A DNA stretch of 4,285 nucleotides from a virus (lineage: Duplodnaviria > Heunggongvirae > Uroviricota > Caudoviricetes), in the IMG/VR virus record IMGVR_UViG_2728369591_000004, positions 1-4,285 of that record. One strand, given 5' to 3'. Positions 1-4,285 of this stretch are shown piece by piece. The position numbers were made by a program, and so were the translations under genes. Every line of letters begins with the position of its first letter. The first letter of the stretch is position 1. Under the pieces are notes generated by a model, which ran no database searches, had not been told where the DNA came from, and worked only from the letters and a program-made list of their open reading frames with translations.

Positions 1-46
1 GCACCTCAAAAACACCATCATACACTAAATCAGTAAGTTGGCAGCA

Positions 47-328
47 TCACCCATCCGAGCATCTGCGTTTCTTCGCGATAGAACGCAGTGAGATACCTAT
101 AACAAAGTGAGCAATGATCAGTTCATATTCTTCTGGTTTATATTTACGCAACCGCACCACACAACCGTCTATCATGATCCCTTCATCATCATCACACTGG
201 AGGCGTGACTTTTTACCGTGTGGTAAAAGCCCCTTGAAGCCTGCCGCGATCGGCTGCCAGTCCACTCCGCTGTTATCTGCTGCTGCCCATGCTCCCCAGC
301 GGTCCAAAACCTCGTACATATCACGCAT
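47..328 (-). CDS. Q: Phage antitermination protein Q-like (phage 21/82, QuuD-like family), 93 aa, possibly C-terminally short
   Basis: ATG at 328-326 preceded by GGAGAG with 5-nt spacing; the ORF track's TTG at 343 is probably an artefact. Translation MRDMYEVLDRWGAWAA...IAAGFKGL...SRLQCDDD...GC..RL.K...CSDG matches, from memory, the conserved pattern of DLP12 QuuD (MRDIQMVLERWGAWAA...SIAAGFKGL...CCDDD...CCSDG). Stop TGA at 49-47; QuuD as I recall it is about 127 aa, so this copy may lack about 30 C-terminal residues. Confidence 0.7.
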   Translation of the reverse strand: MRDMYEVLDRWGAWAAADNSGVDWQPIAAGFKGLLPHGKKSRLQCDDDEGIMIDGCVVRLRKYKPEEYELIIAHFVIGISLRSIAKKRRCSDG

Positions 329-345
329 CAAATCTCTCCACAAAA

Positions 346-735
346 TCAGGCCAGCACACCAATTGCCAGCGCGCGATCGATAAATCGAAAAATTAGCTCC
401 AGTTGGGAACCATACTTCTCTTCAAATGCCACAGTGTCCACATGCAACTCGTCGTGATGCTTTCTGCACAAAGGCAATACAAAGAGGTCATGCGCTTTTG
501 TACCCTGGCGACGCGCCTTACGCGTTAACCAGCCTTCTGCTTCCAGCCGTGCGATAGCCGTTCTGACGGTACTCATCCCCGCGCCAATCTGGCGGGCAAT
601 GGTTTCAATTGATGGCCAGCACACACCTTCGTCATTACTGAAATCAGCCAGGCGGGCCATAATTGCCACACTGGATAATTTCATGCCTGACGCTGCGCAA
701 CCATCCCATACATAGCCGGTTAATTTAGTGCTCAT
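346..735 (-). CDS. HTH_36-type DNA-binding protein resembling the N-terminal domain of phage replication initiators (O-like), with an atypical Cys/His-containing C-terminus; possible deletion fusion
   Basis: ATG at 735-733 with AGAGG about 6 nt upstream. Residues about 18-80 (LSSVAIMARLADFSNDEGVCWPSIETIARQIGAGMSTVRTAIARLEAEGWLTRKARRQG) fit the PF13730-like pattern (LaLadhan.dG.cwPS.etLA...G.S.rTV.RAl..LeE.GLl). The C-terminal 45 aa (LPLCRKHHDELH...) do not continue the usual replication-protein pattern. Stop TGA at 348-346, 17 nt before the Q start. Confidence 0.55.
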   Translation of the reverse strand: MSTKLTGYVWDGCAASGMKLSSVAIMARLADFSNDEGVCWPSIETIARQIGAGMSTVRTAIARLEAEGWLTRKARRQGTKAHDLFVLPLCRKHHDELHVDTVAFEEKYGSQLELIFRFIDRALAIGVLA

Positions 736-1083
736 GACCGACCTCTATTTCCCTGAATTTACGACGAAACTGTTCGAGCGGGCTGAAGCACTCATGCTCA
801 TAGCCTTCGCGGAGGTAGATAACCCGTTGTGTTTCCGGCTCCCAACGAATGACTCTGACGGGCACTCCGTAGTGATCTTTGAACCAGCGGTTAACTTCTC
901 GCAAAGGACTGTCTCCTTCTGCCGGTTGAAATCCCCCACAGCCCACTCAGCAAAGCTGTGGGTTACAATTTCCCTGTCACCTGGTACATTCACTGCATAG
1001 CAATACTCCACCTTCGCTTTTCCACCCGGTACAGGAAGCGCAATCAGTTGCGAGTGACGGTAGTGTGTTGTTAAACTGTTCAT
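725..1083 (-). pseudogene. Small phage protein of unknown function, interrupted by a -1 frameshift at a G5 (plus-strand C5) run at 933-937
   Basis: ATG at 1083-1081 overlaps the upstream TGA (ATGA coupling), with GGAGA upstream. The N-terminal 50 codons in this frame look protein-like ([50 protein letters not shown]). After the G5 run, that frame turns Ser-rich and low-complexity, while the -1 frame (725..946) reads [53 protein letters not shown] and ends with TAA overlapping the next gene's start. One extra G would join the two frames into about 120 aa. Confidence 0.4.
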
Positions 1084-1631
1084 GCGTTAGTTTCTCCACA
1101 GTCACGACACGCCACGGCGCCCGGAGCTGCACACTCGCGGGCGTCATTACTTTCTGAAATGCAAAATATTTTGTAGACCAGTGCTGCATGCTCCTGCAGC
1201 TTCGAAATTGAGAGATACAGCTCGTCGTTAATTGCTGTCTTCTCATGCGGTTCCACTACACCGTCTTCAATTGCTGAACGAATCTGTTTTGAATAACTGC
1301 CGATCTGTTCAATGACCTCCAGCAGGCGTTGGTTGATATCGGCGTTGTCCACATCCTCGACATCAGGAAGAGACACAAAGACGCCATTTGCAGACTGCGC
1401 CACAGCGTCAGCAATGAAGTGAGTTCCACCAGCACGTTGCAAAATCATTGCCCATCCCAGCGGGAAAATCTGATCGCCATCGGCACGAAGGCGGTTAAAT
1501 AATGCGTTCTCTGTTACATCCAGCCAGTCAGCAGCTTCAGCGTACCCCCCCGGCAACGCTGCGATAGTTTTTCTGACAGCTTTCACGTACCACTCAGGCT
1601 GTTTTTCTACTTTCCAGTGATGCTTACCCAC
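1080..1631 (-). CDS. Phage CII-like regulatory protein (putative Phage_CP76 / YdaT-type), 183 aa
   Basis: GTG start at 1631-1629 preceded by AGGAGG with 6-nt spacing; it overlaps the cro-like stop by 8 nt. Its position directly downstream of cro matches lambda cII and the Rac/CP-933P ydaT arrangement. The segment [35 protein letters not shown] resembles, from memory, the HTH region of 186-CII/CP76-family proteins. The C-terminus carries a Cys-containing tail ([14 protein letters not shown]). Family assignment is moderate; gene presence is high. Confidence 0.55.
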
Positions 1632-1884
1632 GGTTCACCTCCTGTTCCTGTGGTTTAAACCCATTCTGGTTTTGGCTAGATTGAAAACGTGCCGGATAAA
1701 GAATCTGCATTTCGCTGACTTCACCCTTAAAAAAATTGGCTAATCGTTCTGCAAGCTCGATAGATGGAATCTGCTCCAGCCTCTCAATACGACTCAACGT
1801 CGCTGGATTGACTTGAACACCCGCAGCAACATGCTGCAAAGTGAAACCATGCGCCTTACGCACATTTCGTAATGGTGATTGCAT
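1624..1884 (-). CDS. cro: Cro-like XRE-family HTH transcriptional regulator, 86 aa
   Basis: ATG at 1884-1882 with AGAGGG 3 nt upstream. The segment LRNVRKAHGFTLQHVAAGVQVNPATLSRIERLEQIPSIELAERLANFF is a typical Cro/C1-type HTH. It is divergently transcribed from the CI-like repressor across a 97-bp operator-rich intergenic region. Confidence 0.8.
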   Translation of the reverse strand: MQSPLRNVRKAHGFTLQHVAAGVQVNPATLSRIERLEQIPSIELAERLANFFKGEVSEMQILYPARFQSSQNQNGFKPQEQEVNRG

Positions 1885-1981
1885 ATGCCCTCTAAATATT
1901 GCGCGTTATGCATGTCATTTCACGCAATTATTTTGCGCAAGTTGATTTGCTTATCACGCAATAAAGAAATGTAATAAACGC
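1885..1981. promoter_or_regulatory. OR-like divergent promoter/operator region between cro and cI
   Basis: The 97-bp intergenic region contains 15-bp sites with TTGC-N7-GCAA symmetry: 1899-1913 TTGCGCGTTATGCAT, 1913-1927 TGTCATTTCACGCAA and 1947-1961 TTGCTTATCACGCAA, plus the palindrome TTGCGCAA at 1933-1940. TCACGCAAT occurs at 1920-1928 and 1954-1962. Exact -35/-10 elements were not confidently assigned. Confidence 0.6.
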
Positions 1982-2674
1982 ATGAACATAGGAAACCGAG
2001 TCAGACAACTTCGCCAAGCGAAGAACATGAAAATCGCCGATCTCGCTGAAGCAATAGGAGTAGATGCGGCGAACATCTCGCGCTTAGAAACGGGTAAGCA
2101 AAAACAATTTACCGAACAAACACTGAGTAATATTGCCAAGAGCTTAGGTGTTGATATTGCTGATCTCTTTACCTCTGCCCACAAAAGTAATACTGTATAT
2201 AAAAACAGTAATAATGAGGATGTTGCGCAGGTGAAGGATGTGTTCCGTATTGAAATGCTGGATATCAGTGCCAGTGCGGGAAATGGCCTTATCCAGGGCG
2301 GTGATGTCATTGATGTGATTCATGCCATCGAATACAGAACTGATAATGCTGTATCAATGTTCGGCGGACGACCAGCCAATCACATCAAAGTTATCAACGT
2401 TCGTGGGGACAGTATGTGTCCAACCATTGAGCCAGGAGATCTCATCTTCGTTGATATCAGCATCAATCAGTTTGATGGTGATGGTATATATGTCTTTGGT
2501 TTTGATGACAAAATATACGTTAAAAGACTTCAAATGATTCCTGACAAACTGCTGGTGATTTCTGATAACCAGATTTACCGTGAATGGGGAATTACTAGCG
2601 AAAACGAACACCGATTCATGGTCTTTGGAAAGGTCTTAATCAGTCAGTCGCAAACCCTTAAGAGACATAATTAA
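1982..2674 (+). CDS. cI: Phage CI-like repressor: N-terminal XRE HTH plus C-terminal S24 (LexA-like) autopeptidase domain, 230 aa
   Basis: N-terminus RVRQLRQAKNMKIADLAEAIGVDAANISRLETGKQ is an HTH. The C-terminal domain has the catalytic Ser in GDSM (S144, nt about 2411-2413), Lys in VKRL (K181) and a candidate Ala-Gly cleavage site (A99-G100 in ISASAGNG). The SD before ATG 1982 is weak (aataaacgcATG), so the transcript may be leaderless or short-leader like lambda PRM. Stop TAA at 2672-2674. Confidence 0.9.
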   Translation: MNIGNRVRQLRQAKNMKIADLAEAIGVDAANISRLETGKQKQFTEQTLSNIAKSLGVDIADLFTSAHKSNTVYKNSNNEDVAQVKDVFRIEMLDISASAGNGLIQGGDVIDVIHAIEYRTDNAVSMFGGRPANHIKVINVRGDSMCPTIEPGDLIFVDISINQFDGDGIYVFGFDDKIYVKRLQMIPDKLLVISDNQIYREWGITSENEHRFMVFGKVLISQSQTLKRHN

Positions 2675-2693
2675 CCTCAATATCCCATCCATC

Positions 2694-2716
2694 GGCCACC
2701 TAAAGGTGGCTTTTTA
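2694..2716 (+). terminator. Rho-independent terminator downstream of cI
   Basis: Stem GCCACC (2695-2700), loop TAAA, stem GGTGGC (2705-2710), followed by TTTTT (2711-2715), about 20 nt after the cI stop. Confidence 0.7.
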
Positions 2717-2728
2717 TTACCTATAAAT

Positions 2729-2765
2729 TTGCATATCTCGCAAATATCACTTGCATATCTCGCAA
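2729..2765. promoter_or_regulatory. OL-like operator pair: two direct copies of TTGCATATCTCGCAA
   Basis: Identical 15-mers at 2729-2743 and 2751-2765, 22 bp centre to centre. Each has TTGC-N7-GCAA symmetry and matches the OR site 1947-1961 (TTGCTTATCACGCAA) at 13 of 15 positions. TTGCAT could serve as a -35 and TATCTT (2774-2779) as a weak -10 for rightward transcription. The position after cI parallels lambda OL/PL. Confidence 0.5.
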
Positions 2766-2931
2766 TTTAATTTTATCTTTTGTTCCAGACCAACTACAGG
2801 ATTACAACAAAATCTGGTTGCAACACGGTGCATGTGTCGTAAGCAGTCAGTAAATGTCAAAAACGAACAGGCAGGACGCCCACGAAGTAGCCGCCTGGGG
2901 CATATGAAGTCCAGGATGATTCGTTAGCAAC

Positions 2932-2954
2932 AAAAAAGCGTCCTACAGGACGCT
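2932..2954 (-). terminator. GC-rich hairpin with a U6 tract on the minus strand: intrinsic terminator for the antigen 43 remnant transcript
   Basis: Stem GCGTCC (2938-2943), loop TACA, stem GGACGC (2948-2953); plus-strand A6 at 2932-2937 gives UUUUUU after the hairpin on the minus strand. The stop codon of the minus-strand ORF (2945-2943) lies inside the hairpin. On the plus strand the same hairpin lies directly 5' of the boxA-like element. Confidence 0.5.
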
Positions 2955-2955
2955 T

Positions 2956-2968
2956 AGCTCTTTAACAA
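2956..2968 (+). promoter_or_regulatory. boxA-like antitermination element (GCTCTTTAACAAT)
   Basis: Plus-strand GCTCTTTAACAAT matches the rrn/lambdoid boxA consensus (T/C)GCTCTTTAACAA at 12 of 12 positions after the first base. It sits in the leader between the OL-like operators and the strong RBS/ATG at 3001-3016, where a nutL site is expected. Confidence 0.4.
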
Positions 2969-3000
2969 TCTGGTCCCCATCAACAAGTAACTGATAACTT

Positions 3001-3050
3001 GAGGAGGTGTGAAATGCACAAAACAGAACCAAAAATCGTCGCGCCCGGAT
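3001..3050 (+). other. Orphan translation start: strong RBS plus ATG and 12 codons (MHKTEPKIVAPG) of a truncated first early-left gene, possibly N-like
   Basis: GAGGAGG (3001-3007), 6-nt spacer, ATG 3014-3016. After about 12 codons the plus-strand sequence becomes the antisense of the antigen 43 remnant (junction about 3050); the remaining ORF to 3190 is low-complexity antisense. Identity cannot be determined from 12 residues. Confidence 0.3.
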
Positions 3051-4285
3051 GCCCAGACGGAAGCCGGCACGCACATGTTGTGCACTGCCATGCCCGAACT
3101 TCACATAACCGGCGTTATCCTGGCCGTCATCCAGGGAGAGTCCCTGCCAGGTGTACTGCAGTTGCGGCTCCAGCATCAGATTGTCAGTGATACTGAAGGG
3201 CAGACCGGTTTCCAGTGAGCCCAGCCAGCCCCAGCCCCGGGCGCGGAAGTCGTTATTGTCCGATGACGCTTTCATGCTGTGGCGGGTTCCCTGTGCCACA
3301 ATGTCAGCCCACAGGCCGGAGGACGTGTGTGTCAGATTCAGGTATCCGCCCAGGCTGCCGGCATCATCCCGGACCGTGCCGGCGCGGGAACCGTCATCAT
3401 CCTTAACATCAACGGAAGAATGGCCTGCAGCACCATATACCCCTGTCGTCAGAGACATACCGGCAACCTCTGTTCTCAGCAGGTCACCCTCCAGACGGAC
3501 GAAGCCATAGCTGCCGCTGCTTTCCGGCGTGGCTCCACGGGCAATACCCCCCATTCAGCGTGGTATCCAGTGCGTGACCATGTACAGTCTGGTCGCCGCC
3601 GGCATAAACCACAGTGGTATTTGCCGTTCCTTCAGCAGCCACAATCTGACGACCATTTTTATTGATGGTGGTGCGTACGGCATCTCCGTAGACGGTCTGC
3701 CCTGTATCACCATTTTCTGCATCCGGTCCCCCTTCCGCGCCGGTATTCACAACCGTGTCGGTTGCCATTGCGCCGGATTTGACGGCCTGCCAGCCCTTCT
3801 CATTAATGACGGTACCCGTTGCAATCCCGCCTTCATGTACCCACTGCTCACCGCCGTTCAGAGTGGTATTCACTGCCTGCCCCTGAAGGCTCTGTCCGCC
3901 TCCGGCACTGATAACCGTGTCTGAAACGCTTCCTCCGGCATTCACTCTCTGAAGACCACCACCGGTGACAGTAGTGTTGTTGGCGGTACCGCCATTTTGT
4001 ATCCATTGGCCGCCGGTATTCGCCTCGTTATCCGGCCCATACTCCAGCCCGGTACTGATGGTCATTCCGTTGGCCGTACCGAGAACAATCTGGTTGTCAT
4101 GATTTGTCAGTGTTCCGCCGCTCACGGTTTCTCCCGCCTGTACGACCGTGTCAGCAGCCAGTGCCGGGACTGATGTGACAGCAGCAAGAGACAGCACAAT
4201 CGCCACACCGGCGCATTTTCCCCGTGAGCGGGCCAGTTCGGAAGCCACCACCAGGGTGCCCGTAATGTGATTCCATACCAGCCTG

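Follow-up and report, generated by a model that had tools for sequence, protein, structure and literature searches.

A probable lambda-like immunity switch with a predicted 15-bp TTGC-N7-GCAA operator in a decayed SfII-type prophage of Escherichia coli

Are the short palindromic repeats on both sides of the repressor gene of a decayed prophage the operators of a lambda-like immunity switch? The question is raised by a 4,285-nt sequence that was analyzed over its whole length (hereafter the window; positions 1 to 4,285 of IMG/VR virus record IMGVR_UViG_2728369591_000004). An original prediction, made from the sequence without database searches, had proposed that 15-bp sites of the form TTGC-N7-GCAA recur between the repressor gene cI and cro and again after the cI terminator, reproducing on a much shorter scale the layout of the right and left operator regions (OR and OL) of phage lambda. 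The window contains the immunity switch of an SfII-type lambdoid prophage that has decayed in E. coli: chromosomal DNA of strain CH4784 matched positions 1600-2960 at 99.9%, and positions 1600-2925 matched Shigella phage SfII at 99.4%. As judged from comparison with relatives, a lambda-like OR/OL switch, in which CI would act on the 15-bp TTGC-N7-GCAA site at OR and at the early-left promoter pL, is highly probable. The features discussed below are listed in Table 1.

Exact TTGC-N7-GCAA sequences were found three times in the window (at 1947, 2729 and 2751), where 0.13 were expected, and none of 200 shuffles reached three. All three exact sites adjoin cI. With up to one mismatch allowed, the whole window contained seven sites against 3.2 expected, a count that is not significant. 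Because the one-mismatch count alone is not remarkable, the case is built on the exact sites, their clustering and the relatives. A family matrix constructed solely from relatives outside the SfII lineage (consensus, TTGCGTAATACGCAA) yielded four strong sites in the window with scores of 16.7-18.9 bits, while the next best site scored 9.9 and the 95th percentile of the maximum score in shuffles was 12.6. In the 41,475-bp SfII genome, the top four matrix hits were these same four places, followed by a next best of 10.6. A degenerate copy of the operator (ATGCGCCTTACGCAC, 8.7 bits) was also noticed at 1849-1863 of the window. The positions and sequences given in the original prediction were correct, and so was the statement that the two downstream copies, which are identical and lie 22 bp apart from start to start, match 1947-1961 at 13 of 15 positions. 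Their placement after the cI terminator was likewise borne out by a terminator-like hairpin and T-run at 2694-2711.

Table 1. Positions of the features discussed in the text, numbered from the first letter of the window unless a sequence label (L) is given.
Feature	Position	Strand	Remarks
IS1 end	1 to about 52		Abuts truncated Q
Truncated Q antiterminator gene	47-343
Replication-type helix-turn-helix fragment	346-735		Fused in frame to a DUF968 tail
ymfL/CII-like gene	1080-1631	-	Pfam Phage_CP76
cro-like gene	1624-1884	-	86 aa; putative first gene of PR operon; Pfam HTH_3, E=5e-10
OR site TTGCGCGTTATGCAT	1899-1913		TTGC-N7-GCAT, one mismatch; over putative PR start; matrix 16.7
Putative PR -10	1912-1917	-	TGACAT here; TAACAT in SfII; TAATAT in most relatives
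TTGCGCAA block	1933-1940		Putative PR -35 plus two abutting operator half-sites
Putative PR -35	1940-1935	-	TTGCGC
OR site TTGCTTATCACGCAA	1947-1961		Exact match; overlaps putative PRM -35; matrix 17.4
Putative PRM -35	1947-1952	+	TTGCTT
Putative PRM -10	1970-1975	+	TGTAAT, 17 bp after TTGCTT, 6 nt before cI ATG
cI	1982-2674	+	230 aa; Pfam HTH_3 and Peptidase_S24
Intrinsic terminator of cI	2694-2716	+	Terminator scan; hairpin 2694-2711, 7-bp stem with 5 G-C pairs, T-run
OL distal site TTGCATATCTCGCAA	2729-2743		Exact match; -57 to -43 of putative pL; matrix 18.9
OL proximal site TTGCATATCTCGCAA	2751-2765		Exact match; matrix 18.9; TTGCAT = putative pL -35
Putative pL -10	2774-2779	+	TATCTT, 17 bp after TTGCAT; start near 2786
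Conserved structured leader RNA	2862-2925	+	64 nt; P1 2862-2867/2920-2925; P3 2894-2898/2911-2915
Hairpin (GCGTCC-TACA-GGACGC)	2936-2955	+	In pL leader
rrn-type boxA GCTCTTTAACAA	2957-2968	+	Directly after hairpin; 0.08 expected
Leader RNA copies elsewhere	L003 3618-3693; L113 and L114 1500-1575; L115 1493-1568; L116 1488-1563

Absence of the sites from equivalent positions in homologous phages had been named as the observation that would speak against the original prediction. The opposite was found: the positions are fixed across 24 loci, drawn from one-genome-per-species contigs plus three phages, in which sites were located relative to cI. These relatives span more than 10 genera (Shigella, Citrobacter, Kluyvera, Klebsiella, Trabulsiella, Buttiauxella, Pantoea, Mixta, Rosenbergiella, Proteus and Serratia), and their cI is 40-100% identical to that of the window. 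Of the 22 relatives of standard geometry, 20 had an exact site 35 bp (or 34 to 36 bp) upstream of the cI ATG, and nearly all relatives had a site of the form TTGC-N7-GCAT 83 bp upstream of it. In most of them an OL pair spaced 22-24 bp starts about 42-67 bp past the cI stop and beyond the terminator, compared with 55 bp, also beyond the terminator, in the window; P. alvi has a third OL site. Sites were ~37-fold denser in the two zones (19.6 per kb) than elsewhere in the loci (0.52 per kb), and for exact sites the densities were 9.2 vs. 0.056 per kb.

Between genera, TTGC and GCAA are kept while the middle 7 bp drift. The same pattern was observed at the population level in 80 near-identical prophages (cI 99-100% identical) that were collected by a search of viral contigs with cI. 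The non-majority bases per column numbered 0-1.5 in TTGC and GCAA and 0.12 in cI, in comparison with 9.0 in the hypervariable center of the distal OL site (2733-2739) and 7.4 in the equally hypervariable spacer between the two OL sites (2744-2750), and TTGC of the proximal OL site was invariant. Constant halves around a variable center are the footprint that would be expected of a dimeric helix-turn-helix (HTH) protein reading the outer bases. Hypervariability was also noticed at 1886-1888, just before the cro ATG, where the three positions had 36, 17 and 23 non-majority bases in the 80 prophages. Candidate causes of the hypervariability are a mutational hotspot, an adjustment of operator strength and the edge of a recombined segment.

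These results bear on whether the repeats at 2729-2765 are operators at all or are instead inert relics, iterons used in replication or repeats that arose by chance. Such an explanation would suit the low copy number (two) and the deletion of the left operon from this copy of the prophage. It is, however, contradicted by the shuffles described above, by positions that are conserved over more than 10 genera and by half-sites that stay constant amid very high local polymorphism, and we regard it as extremely improbable. Replication iterons were rejected on further grounds: the two copies are palindromic in their outer 4 bp, they adjoin a terminator and a putative promoter, and no replication gene is nearby. 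In SfII, the O-like gene is located on the other side of cro from the OL pair.

The most likely binder of the 15-bp site, both beside its own gene and at the early-left promoter, would be CI. Its domains comprise an HTH_3 domain at residues 7-62 and a Peptidase_S24 domain at residues 104-218 (Pfam), corresponding to a 434-type HTH and an S24 autopeptidase. Residues A99, G100, S144 and K181 show no variation among 21 homologues that reach down to 69% identity, and the recognition-helix region (DAANISRLETGKQK) hardly varies among them. CI thus combines an HTH with an S24 autopeptidase that possesses both the Ser-Lys dyad and the Ala-Gly site, as a switch repressor should. Direct observation supports the motif with its statistics, its fixed placement among relatives and this domain make-up of CI. 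The CI family includes 1200 proteins at E <= 1e-20, and because the recognition helix is nearly invariant, one operator should serve the entire family. It should be noted that the public records of cI of mEp460 (L002 3383-4075), and likewise of L004 and L005, start at Met16 (215 aa); this start would remove helix 1 of the HTH. Two observations favor the 230-aa form: TGTAAT-N6-ATG is conserved, and the Pfam match begins at residue 7.

The DNA itself does not reveal the binder, and the sites might mainly serve another protein, such as Cro alone, a YmfL/CII-like activator or a host factor, with CI reading a different sequence. Cro is likewise an HTH_3 protein, and in a comparison made by manual register from the Pfam matches, its aligned recognition helix also has the S-R-x-E residues. 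The motif, however, tracks the cI family across genera while the CI recognition helix remains nearly invariant, and it occurs at each of the three promoters that need to be controlled by a prophage repressor. CII-type activators use direct repeats at cI-facing promoters, not palindromes over PR and pL, and we know of no E. coli factor with a TTGC-N7-GCAA motif. Primary use of the sites by a protein other than CI is thus quite improbable, and CI remains the most likely candidate.

For assigning the sites to promoters, PR and PRM were placed by ungapped alignment of the relatives from the cI ATG, and pL was placed by its conserved position after cI. The genes cro (- strand) and cI (+ strand) are divergent and separated by a 97-bp gap, and they are annotated in the same way in SfII. 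The part of the original prediction that placed one 15-bp operator in the cI-cro gap and again after the cI terminator is upheld, but OR consists of two strong sites (1899 and 1947), over the putative PR start and the putative PRM -35, rather than of three to four, with orphan half-sites between them. The claim that 1899-1913 is operator-like holds, as this site has a single mismatch and its GCAT form is conserved at that position in nearly all relatives. A further operator had been proposed at 1913-1927 (TGTCATTTCACGCAA). It has two mismatches in its left half, scores 1.4 bits, has no counterpart with one mismatch or fewer in any relative and overlaps the putative PR -10; the matrix score and the lack of conservation rule it out as a conserved full site. 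The TTGCGCAA palindrome, which had been listed with the operators, is real and nearly invariant in the family, but it is not part of any full 15-bp site here: the two candidates that would include it, 1926-1940 and 1933-1947, scored -1.4 and 0.4, respectively, and were rejected.

The placement of PR follows from two conserved elements. The block GCATATTAT, which is TAATAT in reverse complement, is conserved at a distance of 17 bp from the minus-strand TTGCGC, and the PR start is predicted near 1905, ~21 nt ahead of the ATG of cro with its GAGGG. At PRM, TGTAAT (TTTAAT or TAAAT in a few) is found at a fixed distance from the cI ATG across the relatives. Given that TGTAAT is only 6 nt before the ATG, the cI mRNA is probably leaderless, with a start near 1982, at or next to the ATG; the cI start in the window has no Shine-Dalgarno sequence. 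With 1.7-2.0 bits in all 8 columns among 20 relatives, TTGCGCAA is the most conserved block of the region. The slightly longer stretch at 1933-1942 (TTGCGCAAGT) is more conserved than the operators, even in the relative with a 40%-identical cI. Because the PR -35 alone seems insufficient to explain the invariance of 10 bp, another protein may bind at 1933-1942.

Two further observations concern OR. Position 1916 carries a private T-to-C change that converts the PR -10 from TAACAT to TGACAT, with loss of the key A at position 2. TAACAT is present in SfII and in 76 of 79 near-identical prophages, and C is found at this position in none of them. The change, which falls inside the supposed site at 1913-1927, may be a promoter-down mutation that locks the lytic promoter of the remnant. 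In L091, L096, L097, L099, L104, L105 and L109, an exact TTGC-N7-GCAA sequence is located inside the start of cro, ~134 bp upstream of cI, and might constitute a fourth operator with its action downstream of PR.

On the other side of cI, the downstream pair is predicted to overlap the -35 of pL, so that a second operator cluster stands at the position of an early-left promoter, as in lambdoid OR/OL switches. In nearly all relatives, the proximal TTGC is followed at a distance of 17 bp by a TATnnT box. Moreover, the heteroimmune phages SfV, ZF40, YeP2 and SPN3UB have a consensus TTGACA-17-TAnAnT promoter at the same post-terminator position, and the same leader sequence follows the promoter in all four; in ZF40 and YeP2 the shared leader start ATCAACAGCG appears 6-7 nt after the -10. 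In SfV, YeP2 and SPN3UB, the operator motif that each phage has at its own OR also overlaps this post-terminator promoter. The SfV GenBank record, which belongs to a different immunity type, marks a "putative operator region." A stretch of ~75 nt between pL and the leader RNA (2786-2855) occurs in SfII and the window and has no counterpart in Kluyvera, ZF40 and YeP2; part of it (2766-2834) is also present in mEp460 and the Stx2a phages and includes a predicted hairpin at about 2814-2846.

An alternative role for the downstream pair would be to bind CI away from any promoter and serve as a loop anchor to OR that tunes PR and PRM, as OL3 does in lambda. The promoter scan called no consensus promoter at 2729-2790, and the ~800 bp to OR is a workable looping distance. 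Against this stand the TATnnT box in nearly all relatives, the heteroimmune promoters at exactly that place, before the shared leader, and the lack of any other promoter candidate between the cI terminator and the left-operon genes. We consider that there is only a very small chance that the pair acts solely as a loop anchor, and overlap with pL is the reading that we retain. The shorter scale of the layout, which the original prediction had stressed, is real as a distance but is no special feature: OR and OL are close because the interval between cI and pL holds nothing.

Several observations weigh against this interpretation of the switch. PR, PRM and pL are assigned by conserved position alone: each of the three putative -35 elements shares just 3 of its 6 bases with TTGACA, and because of this the consensus promoter scan of 1500-3100 called no promoter. 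OR has no recognizable third full site in the SfII lineage. The best-matching OR site is on PRM, not on PR, which departs from the affinity order of lambda, and for this reason autoregulation by CI cannot be read from the site matches. CI and Cro, which probably share the sites, showed no significant similarity by BLASTP, and the hits in a sequence search of the PDB with CI were limited to distant HTH proteins and UmuD, with neither a closely related structure nor a usable operator complex among them. A search of the literature returned no binding or expression data for this repressor. The left operon in the window is cut off ~270 bp past pL, and the OL pair therefore has little left to control there.

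On the most likely reading, the switch would operate as follows; the promoters, the identities of the binders, cooperative binding and a possible loop of about 800 bp between OL and OR are inferred. A CI dimer would bind the 15-bp palindrome (consensus, TTGCGTA-N-TACGCAA), with specificity residing in the outer TTGC and GCAA, and Cro would probably use the same sites. The two OR promoters would point apart, PR leftward and PRM rightward. Occupation of 1899-1913 would cover the PR start and turn off cro and the lytic operon, and occupation of 1947-1961, by CI at high level or by Cro, would cover the PRM -35 and turn off cI. The TTGCGCAA block would supply the PR -35 and, beyond that, could offer no more than a weak half-site to a dimer that binds cooperatively. 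At OL, where the two sites are two helical turns apart and the proximal site would form the pL -35, a cooperative pair of dimers would silence pL, which in intact SfII would drive an early-left operon reaching xis and int. Induction would proceed by RecA-stimulated self-cleavage of CI at A99-G100.

The design is ordinary lambda-like, and the locus adds a worked example, not a new design. As in lambda, cI and cro are divergent with back-to-back promoters, which would be ~77 bp apart here; the distance between PR and PRM in lambda is 82 bp. Also shared with lambda are a palindromic operator that is used again, as a second cluster, at the early-left promoter, a spacing of about two helical turns between neighboring sites, a CI made of an HTH and an S24 domain with an Ala-Gly cleavage site, and a PRM-derived cI mRNA that is probably leaderless. 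In contrast to lambda, the sites are 15 bp rather than 17 bp long, OL has two sites instead of three and OR only two clear ones, the site over PR would cover the start point and not the -35/-10 spacer, and the best-matching OR site is on PRM. There is also no rex between cI and OL, and OR and OL are separated by ~0.8 kb vs. 2.3 kb.

The operator of phage 434 (ACAA-N6-TTGT) offers a second comparison. The HTH type is the same (Cro/C1, HTH_3), weak PDB sequence hits were obtained to the 434 repressor and a designed variant, and both operators have four conserved outer bases per half and a variable, non-contacted center. They differ, however, in half-site sequence and in spacing (15 bp here vs. 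14 bp), and the relationship between the two proteins is distant (E about 1e-2 to 1e-4). Comparison with the lambdoid phage 933W is relevant because the immunity type described here occurs in Stx2a phages. Phage 933W has five natural repressor sites and lacks OL3, which leaves it with two OL sites (PMC3317979), as found here, but its repressor and operators are unrelated, it has three clear OR sites, and its repressor reportedly shows no cooperativity. It should be noted that a match to the consensus does not predict the affinity of the 933W repressor (PMC3317979). No description of the present operators or of their recognition sequence was found in the literature searched.

In addition to the operators, the early-left region contains a conserved structured RNA at the start of the predicted pL transcript (Table 1). 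A pattern scan of viral contigs recovered at least 115 distinct variants. In an alignment of 34 of them, 10 of the 11 pairs in the two helices showed compensatory changes, and 93.9% of the cells were paired vs. 20-43% with slid partners. None of 500 shuffles reached the covariation score, RNAalifold recovered the same helices, and the internal 26 nt are invariant. The leader RNA is shared by SfII, SfV, ST64B, ZF40, YeP2, SPN3UB and many prophages with unrelated repressors and is common in N-less phages like SfV and ST64B. It is absent from mEp460 and from Stx2a phages that share this cI, and it thus travels independently of the immunity module. A covariance model found one copy per phage genome, SfII included. 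A scan of the whole window with 4227 Rfam covariance models (E up to 1) gave no match, and the leader sequence was not described in the literature searched.

The reported lack of N in this group of phages (PMC3851460) and the put RNA of phage HK022 (PMC9378689) suggest one possible function. Like put, the leader RNA is a structured RNA of about 65-70 nt positioned right after pL. In contrast to put, it occurs as one copy per genome rather than as a putL/putR pair, and its fold differs, with a closing helix, a single inner hairpin and an extended internal stretch that is invariant. HK022 put was rejected as a homologue, given that BLAST gave nothing and the covariance model found no copy in HK022. 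It is conceivable, if rather unlikely, that the leader RNA is a protein-independent processive antiterminator or another RNA polymerase device that replaces N in N-less lambdoids, and thus a second put-like class unrelated to HK022 put.

Farther along the leader, a hairpin precedes a boxA in the window. The sequence GCTCTTTAACAA is identical to the core of the boxA of rrn operons, and the hairpin followed by boxA repeats the boxB-then-boxA order of rrn operons. Read on the minus strand, the hairpin with its T-run resembles an intrinsic terminator. The hairpin/boxA module was found in 26 of 141 leader contexts, and boxA was accordingly rejected as a general feature of these leaders; it belongs to only one downstream module.

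The immunity module is the sole intact part of the remnant. Its cI region is 99.4% identical to that of SfII at the DNA level, the SfII record annotates the genes corresponding to the cro-like and ymfL/CII-like genes as Cro and cII, and the cI terminator is annotated in SfII and present in nearly all relatives. A paper comparing SfIV with related phages lists cI and cro in SfII and no homologues of cII, cIII or N, and no N gene has been reported in SfII-type phages (PMC3851460). The right arm of the prophage (1-735) is wrecked, and a small open reading frame lies between the HTH/DUF968 fragment and ymfL. On the side of the left operon, the cI terminator is followed by ~330 bp of early-left leader and then by an Ag43-like pseudogene on the minus strand. 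An ATG at 3014 with a Shine-Dalgarno sequence (region 3001-3051) opens the first open reading frame of the left operon, which after ~12 codons is joined to the opposite-strand Ag43-like autotransporter pseudogene (3051-4285, minus strand), itself frameshifted and truncated at its C-terminus. Homology to phage sequences ends at about 3045-3057. In SfII, the genes that follow the cI/pL point extend to xis and int on the strand of pL.

The switch is widespread. Of 5426 complete E. coli genomes, 2180 contained DNA similar to 1600-2960 and 1040 carried most of it, and the immunity type is also found in the Shigella serotype-converting phage SfII, in Salmonella ST64B and in Stx2a-converting phages of O157:H7. 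The operator TTGCGTA-N-TACGCAA provides a handle for predicting homoimmune prophages, for designing reporters and footprints, for developing orthogonal repressor-operator pairs and for studying the induction of Stx2a phages.

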